Positions 1-11,077 of a stretch of 64,000 nucleotides of DNA are shown here, one piece after another. The stretch lies in the sequence record OR296290.1; one strand, given 5' to 3'. The position numbers and the translations under genes were made by a program. Numbering within the stretch: the stretch's first letter is position 1; each line of letters begins with the position of its first letter. The stretch is from Escherichia phage SDYTW1-F1-2-2_3. The notes under the pieces are model-generated. The model was not told the DNA's origin, ran no database searches, and was given only the letters and a program-made list of their open reading frames with translations.

Positions 1-1981
1 TAGAACCAAGCGTACAACTTTCAGCATCGCGCCACGGAATCTGCTTAAAACACTCTGAGCAGTAGCCGAGGGTTGACCACATGGCTTTGGTGAAGTCAGT
101 GCTTCGGTTTCCGTCGAAGCTGACAACAGTTTTGCGGAGAGCTGTTCGTGATTCAGGAAACACACCTGCTTTCTCAGCAGGTTCCTCCTTTTTTGGCTTA
201 GTTGAGATTGCAAAAATACTGTTGCTACGTTTCTCAACATAAGCATCAACAACATCCTCCAGAGTGATGCCTGTCTGTTTCGCTGAGGAAGGTAATACAG
301 TCATACGACCGATCATATCTTCAGTTACACGTAAAGCAAACTCAGGACGACGGGCGTTTGTTGTATCTGTTGCTTTAATCCAGACATAACCATCTTTGAT
401 CGTAGCATTAGATACCTTCTTCTTTACATCTACAGCGCAGACTTTACAGATATCTTCACCACGAAGACGACTAAGTTCTTCATCGAACTCATTCTCCGTT
501 TTAACTTCACCGCAGATTTCACAAACACCAATAGGAGTTTCCTCCTCTTCTTCATCTTTAGGTTTAGTCAAACCTTCCAGACATTCAGGGTGCCAGTAGC
601 ATTGATATGCGAAGACTGCTTTAGGTGCATCCTTCCAATCAATGTGTTTGTCACAACCACCGCAATCACCATGAGAGTGTGCTTCCCAGAATTTACGAGT
701 GATAGTAACGCCATTCTTGTTGACGAAACTATCATTCATATCAAAAGGGATATCATCATCGAAGTCAGCAGTAGTAGACTCAGGCTCCTTTTTCTCCAGA
801 GATGGGTCAACAAAACGACCTGCTGTGATTACTAAACGAACCATAGCATTAACTTCGGAGATGCAGGATACTGTCCCACGGTAAACGATTTTAGGGTCTT
901 TCAGGGCATCCTGATAAGCCTTAATGTCTACGTTATGAACATCGCCTTCAATATACTCTTGAGACTTCTCATCGTAGATATAACCAATCATCTTACCACG
1001 AGAAGGAACAGCACCAGCTGTTGCATAAGGAACAAACTCATGTGGTGTGATTTCCACAGTCATGTCGCGGCGAATGTCAATGTTTCGATCGCTTGCGATT
1101 TTGTTTTGACTTACCACTGCGTTTCTTCGACGAACGTCTGCCGCTGTCACTCCCGGCTTCGTGTCGTAAGGATTGCTTGTACTGCTTTTTGAGGAACTTT
1201 GATAATTGCTTTGGCTGTAGTTGTTCGAGTAGTAATTGCCCCAACGATTGATTACCGTAAAAACCGGAAGCTCGTGGGCGACCTCTTCAACTAGAGTCAT
1301 ACTGTTGTTTGACATATCAAAGATATATTCTGTACCAACTTTACATTCAAAGTGCTCATCAATTCGGTTTTTGTGAGACTTAGAACGCTTCAGAATCCAC
1401 ATCAACATGTCTTCTTCAGAAGCACCAAACCAATCTCTGTTACAACGTGCGAGATGGAAAGGACGCTCTTCATTACGGATGATATGAAGGCGGTTATCAG
1501 AAGCATCATGCCAGATTAAGGTGAAAGCACCATCCAGCTTTTGAATAGTCTCTGCTGCACCAATAGTGTTAATAGAGTGGCAGATGTTCTCACTGTCTAC
1601 CTCGAAGTTTTTGCTGTCAGGTAACAGATCTTGGTCCATCAAGGTTCCGTTATGAACCAGAGTGATGTTACCATGTTGGAAAGGATGGGCGTTCTTGGCG
1701 TTAACTGCACCTTTCGTTGCATGACGGCTGTGACCAACAATCCATGAAGGCGCTACAGTGTAAGCTGTTTCACCAGTGGTGTGTTTCTTGTACTCATCTT
1801 GAAGGATGAATGCGAAAGAAGGAAGTGCCTCTTTATAAGTGAAGACTTCCTTAGTGCTCTTACGCTGACCAAAGATACCAGAGGAATGTTGCCCTCGGAA
1901 TACCCCAGCATAAAAGAGTTGGTTAAATACGTCTAAATCAGTGCTTGACAGATTACCGCCAGCTAATACGATGCCACAAAT
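1..1981 (-). CDS. class-II (Ntn-type) glutamine amidotransferase domain protein, asparagine-synthetase-like; 3' end beyond window; predicted AUU start
   Basis: Minus-strand frame open from window edge to 1981; N-terminus reads (M)CGIVLAGG... with downstream GH-R..T.G and HNG motifs typical of Gn-AT class II; AGGTGG SD-like 8 nt upstream of ATT; in-frame TAG two codons upstream leaves no ATG/GTG/TTG. Confidence 0.55.
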   Translation of the reverse strand, partial: MCGIVLAGGNLSSTDLDVFNQLFYAGVFRGQHSSGIFGQRKSTKEVFTYKEALPSFAFILQDEYKKHTTGETAYTVAPSWIVGHSRHATKGAVNAKNAHPFQHGNITLVHNGTLMDQDLLPDSKNFEVDSENICHSINTIGAAETIQKLDGAFTLIWHDASDNRLHIIRNEERPFHLARCNRDWFGASEEDMLMWILKRSKSHKNRIDEHFECKVGTEYIFDMSNNSMTLVEEVAHELPVFTVINRWGNYYSNNYSQSNYQSSSKSSTSNPYDTKPGVTAADVRRRNAVVSQNKIASDRNIDIRRDMTVEITPHEFVPYATAGAVPSRGKMIGYIYDEKSQEYIEGDVHNVDIKAYQDALKDPKIVYRGTVSCISEVNAMVRLVITAGRFVDPSLEKKEPESTTADFDDDIPFDMNDSFVNKNGVTITRKFWEAHSHGDCGGCDKHIDWKDAPKAVFAYQCYWHPECLEGLTKPKDEEEEETPIGVCEICGEVKTENEFDEELSRLRGEDICKVCAVDVKKKVSNATIKDGYVWIKATDTTNARRPEFALRVTEDMIGRMTVLPSSAKQTGITLEDVVDAYVEKRSNSIFAISTKPKKEEPAEKAGVFPESRTALRKTVVSFDGNRSTDFTKAMWSTLGYCSECFKQIPWRDAESCTLGS

Positions 1982-2060
1982 TTTCTAATCCACCTGAAGG
2001 GTAAACCCTTTCATCTAATTAACCTTTAAATTGTGCCCCTTTGCCAGAGGCACCCATTGA

Positions 2061-3164
2061 TTACAGCGCTTGCTCTAACTGATTTTCCAGATGATCTGGA
2101 ATGTACCCTGTGATGTTGTTATCACTGTGTCCTGACTCACGTAGCAAGTCAAAAATAGCACGGATACGTTGCTCTGGTGCAGATCGTACAGTAGATAGAT
2201 CGGTAGTACGAAGCATAACCAGAATCTCTTGGTACAAGTTGTTAGCGTTCCCTCGGACATATCCAAGGAATCCGTAGAAGTCTGAGATATGACGTAGGTC
2301 AACAAGAACTTCTCCGTTGGAGTTGGTTCGACGTAAACGAATACGACCAGACTGTTCTACTTCATGAGAACGACAATACAAAACATCACGGGCCATACAA
2401 TACCCTGAATGCAAGTCCGACTCGTCCAGATTGTAATCCAGAGGAAGGTAAGGAAGCATTGGGGCAAATCGTACAGTATTTAAATGCTCGATAAACTGAT
2501 CATTGCTCATCTCTGCGTTATCTAAAGCCAGCTTCTTCAACATCAAGAAGCGGTTAACCAGATTGAGAAGTTGACCACGTTTCCACTTAGGCTCACTGAT
2601 ACGGAACTCAATCGAACCATATTGGGCAAGTGGCAGAAGGTTCAGAGATGTATATTTATCCCATGAACGAACCAGACGGTTGAAGAACTCTTCATCGTCG
2701 TAGTTAAATGCGTCAGAGGCATTCATTACCTGTGCTTGTACCACTGCGAAAGCAGGGCAGAAGTTGCTACGGTAACGATGGTAGCCTGAACACTTGAACA
2801 ACATCTTTTCATAGAAGGTCCAAGCGAGAATGGTTTTCTTGAGGATATTACTATCAGCATCCCTCATATCCATATGAACGTGAGTAGAGCAACGCCAAGT
2901 CCCCTCGGCGTGCGATTCAGCTACAGCTTCACTCAGGTTGTTGATAGCGTCTAACAACTCCTGTCCGTTGTAAGGTCGTGAACATACCATTTCACAACCA
3001 TTACGCAGGGAACCATCCTCTGTACAATCCCACATATCTGCTTCGATATGATCGGAACCTTCGAGTTCAAGTTCAATACCGACACCGCACTGAAGTGCAA
3101 TTGAACTATGCGCCTCAGTTAAATGACCTTCTCGATATCCAAAAGTTTGCGCTACAGTTGTCAT
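2061..3164 (-). CDS. glutamine-synthetase-like amidoligase family protein (putative)
   Basis: 367-aa track ORF; GVGIELELEG and STHVHMDM motifs resemble the E-x-E and H-V-H signatures of amidoligase/GS-like ligases; adjacent to the amidotransferase gene. Confidence 0.45.
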   Translation of the reverse strand: MTTVAQTFGYREGHLTEAHSSIALQCGVGIELELEGSDHIEADMWDCTEDGSLRNGCEMVCSRPYNGQELLDAINNLSEAVAESHAEGTWRCSTHVHMDMRDADSNILKKTILAWTFYEKMLFKCSGYHRYRSNFCPAFAVVQAQVMNASDAFNYDDEEFFNRLVRSWDKYTSLNLLPLAQYGSIEFRISEPKWKRGQLLNLVNRFLMLKKLALDNAEMSNDQFIEHLNTVRFAPMLPYLPLDYNLDESDLHSGYCMARDVLYCRSHEVEQSGRIRLRRTNSNGEVLVDLRHISDFYGFLGYVRGNANNLYQEILVMLRTTDLSTVRSAPEQRIRAIFDLLRESGHSDNNITGYIPDHLENQLEQAL

Positions 3165-10973: not shown

Positions 10974-11077
10974 AACTGCCTCCTATTTGATTTGGCGCAC
11001 CGTGTAGGACTCCAACCTACAACCCATTTCTTAGAAGGAAATTGCTCTCTGCAATTGAGCTAACGGCGCAGAATTAT

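Follow-up and report, generated by a model that had tools for sequence, protein, structure and literature searches.

The glutamine amidotransferase gene at the beginning of a 64,000-nucleotide stretch of Escherichia phage SDYTW1-F1-2-2_3 (sequence record OR296290.1; this whole stretch is referred to below as the window) is, as judged from comparative sequence analysis, very probably translated from an AUU codon at 1981-1979 on the minus strand. By nucleotide identity the window is a phiEco32-like Kuravirus; its first 3.2 kb has matches in 98 phage records, with 99.3% identity to Escherichia phage NJ01 and 96-98% identity to other phages of this genus. The gene under study is the homologue of phi32_83 of phiEco32, which is annotated as a glutamine amidotransferase, and it lies in a minus-strand cluster together with two amidoligases and an ATP-grasp enzyme. 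It extends past the start of the window, with about 50 nucleotides, including the stop codon, lying beyond position 1, and the full-length protein in phiEco32 has 676 amino acids. The gene and the elements of its start site are as follows.

1..1981, minus strand: glutamine amidotransferase gene as read from the ATT start, based on its translation, Pfam, the profile match to GlmS and PurF, and the coordinates of the phiEco32 coding sequence
1995-1990, minus strand: Shine-Dalgarno (SD) sequence AGGTGG, predicted duplex with the 3' end of 16S rRNA -5.9 kcal/mol
1989-1982, minus strand: 8-nucleotide spacer ATTAGAAA, including the in-frame TAG (1987-1985) and then AAA; register and length as in infC
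1981-1979, minus strand: ATT, the proposed AUU initiation codon, aligned with the ATG of homologues and the annotated start in phiEco32, SU10 and Bas94
1978-1976, minus strand: TGT, encoding Cys1, the predicted N-terminal nucleophile after removal of formylmethionine (fMet), followed by GGC ATC GTA; C1-G2 is invariant in alignments A1 and A2

The probable AUU start site

The order of elements given in the initial annotation, that is AGGTGG, an 8-nucleotide spacer, ATT and TGT-GGC-ATC-GTA on the minus strand, is correct to the base, and the in-frame TAG does lie two codons (AAA and ATT) before the Cys codon, so that no ATG, GTG or TTG can precede Cys in frame. Continuing in frame, the first canonical starts to be met are TTG at 1642 and ATG at 1639, codons 113 and 114 counted from Cys. 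The window has 41 open frames of 150 codons or more, and in none of the others is the first canonical start preceded by as long a stretch as the 114 codons found here. Under the AUU-start model, the predicted N-terminal peptide is CGIVLAGGNLSSTDLDVFNQLFYAGVFR. The same ATT, whose presence in homologous phages had been proposed as a check, is found in 96 GenBank records, five IMG/VR genomes and seven metagenome contigs of different projects, and its identity in independent metagenome assemblies rules out the sequencing or assembly error, with ATG as the true codon, that the initial annotation had itself raised. The long stretch without a canonical start, the coding type of its divergence and the identity of the leader are more than chance. 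Where that annotation called ATT the only way to a Cys-first protein, initiation at ATT is favoured by every sequence-level test run, but the wording is too strong in principle, because N-terminal nucleophile (Ntn) amidotransferases can also expose Cys1 by removal of a propeptide, a route that the in-frame TAG blocks here. Its further remark that AUU starts are usually regulatory is something that we would only infer. Out-of-frame TTG and GTG codons inside ATTTGTGG were rejected as alternative starts, the peptides that they open, read by eye, having only 8 and 4 codons.

Coding status of the first 113 codons and the N-terminal cysteine

When the window is compared with KBNP1711 and ECBP2, which belong to two other genera, codons 1-113 differ at 59-67 third positions and at 13-21 first and second positions, with 43-50 synonymous against 22-25 non-synonymous codon changes and 78-81% amino-acid identity; from this pattern of substitution, the 113 codons are judged to be under coding selection. 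The N-terminal approximately 250 amino acids match a class-II (Ntn) glutamine amidotransferase (GATase) domain (Pfam GATase_6, 1e-14, plus GATase_7 and GATase_4), within which the stretches GHSRHATKG, NAHPF and HNG align with E. coli GlmS (GlmS residues 69-132). The glutamine-site motifs, namely R-x-A-T-x-G, N-A-H-P, H-N-G and the Asp in V-D-S-E, are all present, and their columns are invariant in A1 and A2. In a profile built from 14 family members, the first position is Cys, which is matched to residue 1 in the mature chains of GlmS and PurF from E. coli and of PurF from B. subtilis (1xff, 1ecb, 1ao0 and 1gph), the E-values to solved GATase domains ranging from 4e-11 to 4e-12, and on the basis of these matches a four-layer alpha-beta-beta-alpha Ntn fold is likely. 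By alignment, the mature protein is predicted to begin with the catalytic Cys, as in class-II amidotransferases, and the homologues encode Met-Cys. Hence the protein needs Cys at its N-terminus, and a model that begins at the internal ATG cannot give an active enzyme.

The C-terminal approximately 420 amino acids of the amidotransferase gave no match to a Pfam family. Several CxxC pairs lie in this part (window 1-1230, minus strand; residues ~250-660), among them CGGCDKH...CYWHPEC, CEICGEV...CKVC and CSECFKQ, and they suggest zinc ribbons.

Near-cognate start codons across the family

Homologues were gathered from IMG/VR and metagenomes and each was anchored on Cys, which yielded 79 distinct leaders. 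The codon before Cys is ATG in 63 of these, GTG or TTG in three, and near-cognate in the remaining 13 (11 ATT, one ATC and one CTG); an unrelated codon occurs in none of the 79, as is predicted for a start codon and unlike what is predicted for a codon within a propeptide. Homologues with 33-66% identity have ATG-TGT at the aligned site. An ATG-TGT-GG start preceded by an SD sequence is found in Salmonella phage 7-11, Cronobacter phage GAP52, Pantoea phage TacPo2, PKM.Lu.22.1 and LUZ24, as well as in Phriendly, LAh_6, PJNS034 and Bjorn, and the homologue of CVT22 has TTG before Cys. The AUU of the window stands where its orthologues have AUG, with no canonical alternative in frame, and of the non-canonical leaders only L104 has ATG, GTG or TTG in frame between Cys and the closest stop before it.

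In a neighbour-joining tree, the near-cognate cases are interspersed among ATG relatives, and the codon differs within close pairs, as in L120 (ATT) and L111 (ATG), L103 (ATC) and L125 (ATG), and L094 (CTG) and L098 (ATT). The last two are closely related IMG/VR contigs that have a common upstream gene and differing spacers, and they suggest that the start stays weak even as its codon changes. One common SD-to-start distance is found in 11 of the 13 near-cognate leaders against 13 of the 63 ATG leaders, whose distances vary widely (Fisher p = 2e-5, or p = 0.01 when grouped by leader type), and SD pairing has a median of -9.5 kcal/mol in the former against -7.1 kcal/mol in the latter (p = 0.03). 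A real start would be expected to show just this, a weak codon confined to the optimal spacing. By hand count, a stop codon lies 3-4 nucleotides before the start in 10 of 13 near-cognate and 17 of 63 ATG leaders, a difference that is weaker when grouped by type and in which several of the stops close no open reading frame (ORF). A distant metagenomic homologue (L053, 40% identity) reads AGGAGGATTAGAAA-ATT-TGTGGCAT, with a spacer and stop identical to those of the phage and without the hairpin or canonical mini-ORF that are described below.

Two further features were seen among these leaders. The divergent homologues L080, L056, L085 and L104 (and L055) have a common leader, GGAGGATAGTNNN-ATT, whose TAG closes no ORF with a canonical start. 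Additionally, L076 (IMG/VR) has ATG-TGC-TGT-GG, giving Met-Cys-Cys-Gly, in which the second Cys may be the nucleophile or the alignment may be off by one.

Annotation of the gene in related phages

In the type phage phiEco32, the 461 nucleotides around the start have 96.7% identity to the window, and the leader is identical. The AUU start is not new, as it is already in the phiEco32 record of 2008, where the 676-amino-acid protein (ABY52884.1 / YP_001671828.1) begins MCGIV, that is, with the coding sequence taken from ATT; it is in the annotations of most relatives that it has been lost. A 676-amino-acid product is likewise annotated from ATT in the records of SU10 (gp085), LAMP and Bas94. The records closest to the window, those of NJ01 and Paul, take the internal ATG (1639) as the start of a truncated protein of 562-563 amino acids, and models of this length predominate among the members of the amidotransferase's 90% cluster. 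Such truncated calls are presumably to be expected of gene finders that accept only ATG, GTG and TTG as starts. The internal-ATG model leaves a false intergenic gap of 422 nucleotides (window 1640-2060, minus strand) and loses the catalytic Cys. Other internal start positions appear in the records of SGF2, SR02, SU7, KBNP1711 and BUCT695, and YF01 has a 650-amino-acid model. In GenBank MG983840.1 (phage myPSH1131), the match to the first 113 codons falls into two pieces with about 76 extra nucleotides between them, which points to an insertion or an assembly problem within the N-terminal coding region.

The searchable literature, within whose reach the phiEco32 papers of 2008 and 2012 did not fall, contained no discussion of, or experimental support for, the ATT. 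What is new here is the infC-like geometry of the site, the 56-nucleotide invariant leader with its mini-ORF, and the recurrence of near-cognate starts across the family. The 676-amino-acid model should replace the truncated calls for the enzyme.

The invariant leader

The region between the amidotransferase start and the neighbouring upstream gene contains the following features.

2029-1974, minus strand: invariant block TTAAAGGTTAATTAGATGAAAGGGTTTACCCTTCAGGTGGATTAGAAAATTTGTGG, 56 nucleotides, beginning immediately past the upstream stem-loop and ending at base 2 of the Gly codon
2014..1985, minus strand: leader mini-ORF, with ATG (2014-2012), nine codons (MKGFTLQVD) and TAG (1987-1985), in the amidotransferase frame and with its stop 3 nucleotides before ATT
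2027..2023, minus strand: weak SD-like AAAGG, 8 nucleotides upstream of the mini-ORF ATG, -3.4 kcal/mol
2013..1995, minus strand: small hairpin UGAA(A)GGG-UUUA-CCCUUCA, -6.1 kcal/mol, between the mini-ORF ATG and the second SD
2053..2033, minus strand: stem-loop GUGCCUCU-GGCAA-AGGGGCAC, just after the amidoligase gene, terminator-like with a short T run, not called by the terminator scan
2061..3164, minus strand: upstream amidoligase gene, the phi32_84 homologue, which ends 76 nucleotides (2060-1985) before the leader TAG

Three genera were aligned over 3.5 kb, at about 70% pairwise identity. No invariant run in this alignment exceeds the 56 nucleotides of the block, the next longest having 21, and approximately 3e-10 runs of 56 nucleotides are expected. 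A 58-nucleotide leader query returned 96 GenBank records at at least 99% identity, and the Gordonclarkvirinae among the matches listed are all 100% identical over 55-58 nucleotides. The leader block is clearly under strong constraint, and a double start site, made up of the leader ORF and the AUU, explains its extent. The mini-ORF ATG is in frame with the enzyme and had been overlooked in the initial annotation. A frameshift from the leader ORF was rejected upon inspection, as this ORF is already in the enzyme frame and a shift would leave it.

The one variant sequence of the leader comes from Aeromonas phage BUCT695 (L007), in which it is 96% identical, with two substitutions, and precedes a protein that is 54% identical and groups with that of the ATG-bearing GAP52. 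One substitution lies in the loop of the small hairpin, the stem being kept, and the other affects the middle, mismatched position of the SD (AGGCGG); the mini-ORF is retained, with the peptide MKGLTLQAD. A search for more variants in IMG/VR, GTDB genomes and GenBank returned only phiEco32-like copies and that of BUCT695. Directly upstream of the BUCT695 leader (804-1005) are two short ORFs, one of 29 amino acids with CWLWTGCINSDGYP and one of 43 amino acids with a helix-turn-helix-like stretch, which look like remnants of an HNH homing endonuclease, and homing-linked co-conversion could have brought the leader cassette to this phage.

Two other structures were considered and set aside. The long-range helix that closes the whole leader in the minimum-free-energy fold is not kept in BUCT695 by inspection, and compared with shuffled sequences the leader as a whole has no significant excess of folding stability (z = -1.1 to -1.3). 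An alternative hairpin in which the second SD would be concealed (GGUUUACC/GGUGGAUU, -6.1 kcal/mol) is broken by both BUCT695 substitutions (-2.3 kcal/mol). An Rfam 15 scan of 1850-2150, with E up to 10, returned only noise (best scores 16.7 and 12.8 bits against gathering thresholds of 44 and 70), a scan for sigma-70 promoters and terminators gave nothing relevant in the leader, and a second copy of the leader was not found in the window.

The stem at 2033-2053 is GTGCC..GGCAC in Kuravirus and GCGC..GCGC in SU7 and ECBP2, the arms being complementary in each, and hairpins similar to this stem-loop precede the amidotransferase gene in 7-11, PKM.Lu.22.1 and GAP52. The published promoter element of phiEco32 gp36 is tAATGTAtA, and none has been placed at this gene. 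The sequence TTTAAATGTAA, which lies about 20 nucleotides before the amidotransferase start in L066, L068, L069, L007 and L008, resembles that element; the corresponding sequence of the window (2019-2030, minus strand) is a diverged TTTAAAGGTTAA. The pattern TTTAAAKGTWAA, with one mismatch at most, has 12 occurrences in the window, where 2.8 would be expected. A gp36-type promoter at the leader was rejected, given the departure of the window's TTTAAAGGTTAA from the AATGTA core and the absence of any published promoter of this kind at the gene.

Proposed mechanism and alternative explanations

In the proposed mechanism, the SD AGGUGG, situated 8 nucleotides upstream, would put AUU in the ribosomal P site, where the initiator tRNA would insert fMet; host deformylase and methionine aminopeptidase would then remove the fMet, Cys being permitted as second residue, and expose Cys1 as the nucleophile of the Ntn glutaminase domain. 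The use of AUU would keep output low and sensitive to initiation factor 3 (IF3), and ribosomes terminating at the leader UAG would reinitiate at AUU, offsetting a weak codon and an SD that is itself rather weak. By analogy with infC, output would be low and would respond to IF3, and ribosomes coming off the leader ORF would add to it. Taken as a whole, the explanation that combines an AUU start, an infC-like site and coupling is, based on the sequence comparisons, probable; a contribution from mini-ORF coupling, considered by itself, is possible and is held at somewhat short of even chances. A more tentative suggestion is that the 56-nucleotide block is a dedicated and portable translational control cassette, consisting of the mini-ORF, the hairpin and the infC-like AUU start, which might set output via IF3 discrimination and termination-reinitiation. 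A weak start might plausibly serve to hold free glutaminase down in relation to the amidoligase and ATP-grasp enzymes that are its partners.

Several observations weigh against this account or parts of it. In reporters, AUU is 6-8 times weaker than AUG (PMC3592434), and the SD of the phage (-5.9 kcal/mol) is the weakest in the near-cognate set save that of BUCT695 (-5.8). With regard to coupling, the mini-ORF has only a weak SD of its own and its AUG sits at the foot of the hairpin; the stop codons in GGAGGATAG-type leaders close no recognisable ORF, and other ATT lineages, such as L053, have no canonical upstream mini-ORF, and therefore coupling is not general. For a plain start site 56 invariant bases are more than is needed, and the block may therefore encode something else as well. 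To this list belongs the expected mass given for the enzyme in the proteomics of SU10, which is taken up with the internal ATG below.

A very improbable alternative is that ribosomes initiate at the leader AUG (2014-2012) and read past the UAG, and that a 12-residue propeptide, MKGFTLQVD-X-KI, is then autocatalytically removed to expose Cys1. Propeptide removal is an established route to Cys1 in Ntn amidotransferases, for example B. subtilis PurF; the 1ao0 and 1gph chains begin at Cys, and the mini-ORF is in the enzyme frame and is conserved, including in BUCT695. However, the uninterrupted frame from upstream start to Cys that is seen in genes of the B. subtilis PurF type is lacking here, with TAG (1987-1985) intervening, and UAG read-through is normally very inefficient. 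No suppressor tRNA was found in the 64-kb window, all but one of the other near-cognate leaders are without an in-frame canonical start upstream, and an SD at a fixed distance before ATT would have no role. The window's only tRNA gene is that for tRNA-Arg (anticodon TCT; 10993-11069, minus strand). No more probable is a start at the internal ATG (1639), which would make the product a 563-amino-acid protein without glutaminase activity and leave the 113 codons before it as an untranslated remnant. This start is the one used for NJ01, Paul and the predominant 562-563-amino-acid cluster members, and the SU10 proteomics, in which the amidotransferase was detected as an early product, lists an expected mass of 63.8 kDa, which by our estimate is that of the 563-amino-acid model. 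The listed mass fits that model, and the SU10 proteomics is therefore silent on the N-terminus; the supplements of the SU10 paper hold no entry on the amidotransferase. Against an untranslated remnant stand the strong third-position bias and the conservation of amino acids between genera in codons 1-113, the presence there of Cys1 and of the GHxRxAT, NAHPF and HNG motifs, and the lack of a good SD before 1639.

A different kind of alternative accepts the AUU as real and treats it as incidental, the 56-nucleotide block being kept mainly for another reason, such as an operator for a regulator that binds RNA or DNA, a processing site, or a short cassette spread by recombination or homing. This is unlikely, albeit far less so than either of the other two starts. 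The conservation goes beyond the needs of a start site, the BUCT695 cassette is 96% identical though its protein is 54% identical and grouped with the ATG-bearing GAP52, and homing-endonuclease-like remnants lie directly upstream of that cassette. On the other hand, the searches described above found no Rfam family, significant fold, promoter match or second copy in the window, and both of the substitutions seen are neutral for the reading of the block as hairpin, SD and start.

Implications for the study of weak starts

If the block is a control cassette of the kind suggested above, weak near-cognate starts would be a repeatedly selected trait of this phage amidotransferase family and not the oddity of one phage, given their occurrence in 13 of 79 leaders and on many branches, and the close pair with CTG in one member and ATT in the other. 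With an infC-type start site that is frozen over 56 nucleotides in approximately 100 genomes, the phage gene would be a natural reporter of IF3 discrimination during infection. A family in which about one in six leaders is near-cognate would also make it possible to test by comparison what favours the selection of weak start codons.

Comparison with known systems

Confirmed AUU starts are, to our knowledge, very few in E. coli, namely infC and pcnB. In its enzymology, the phage protein shares with GlmS, PurF and AsnB the N-terminal Cys and the R-x-A-T, N-A-H-P and H-N-G motifs; it differs in that it matches them in the glutaminase domain only, and in that its gene sits among phage amidoligases and an ATP-grasp enzyme. 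Its start site resembles that of infC. The thrS-infC junction of E. coli MG1655 reads GGAGG-AATAAGGT-ATT and the phage site GGTGG-ATTAGAAA-ATT, or, spelled out, GGAGG-AA-UAA-GGU-AUU against GGUGG-AU-UAG-AAA-AUU, so that the two have in common the AUU, a spacer of 8 nucleotides in which positions 3-5 are the stop that ends the preceding frame, and the 3-nucleotide gap after this stop. The SD thus lies at a working distance, the computed spacing being that of MG1655 infC. The frame upstream of infC is a full gene, thrS, whereas that of the phage is a 9-codon leader ORF, and the phage SD is weaker; any IF3 feedback on the phage gene would be putative, and the phage product is unrelated to translation. 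The pcnB gene of E. coli, in which an AUU start limits the output of an enzyme (cited in PMC3592434), is likened to the phage gene by its start codon only.

For the infC arrangement, Osterman et al. found that reinitiation and de novo initiation contribute about equally (PMC3592434). Excess IF3 suppresses non-canonical starts and also lowers reinitiation (PMC2268962), so coupling would not escape IF3 control. Among systems with translational coupling, the phage leader differs from the M13 gene V-VII pair and the coat-lysis genes of RNA phages in that its upstream frame is tiny and the translation of that frame putative. It resembles them in having an SD inside the upstream frame and a stop codon within a few nucleotides of the next start (PMC2268962), the UAG of the phage being located 3 nucleotides before the AUU.

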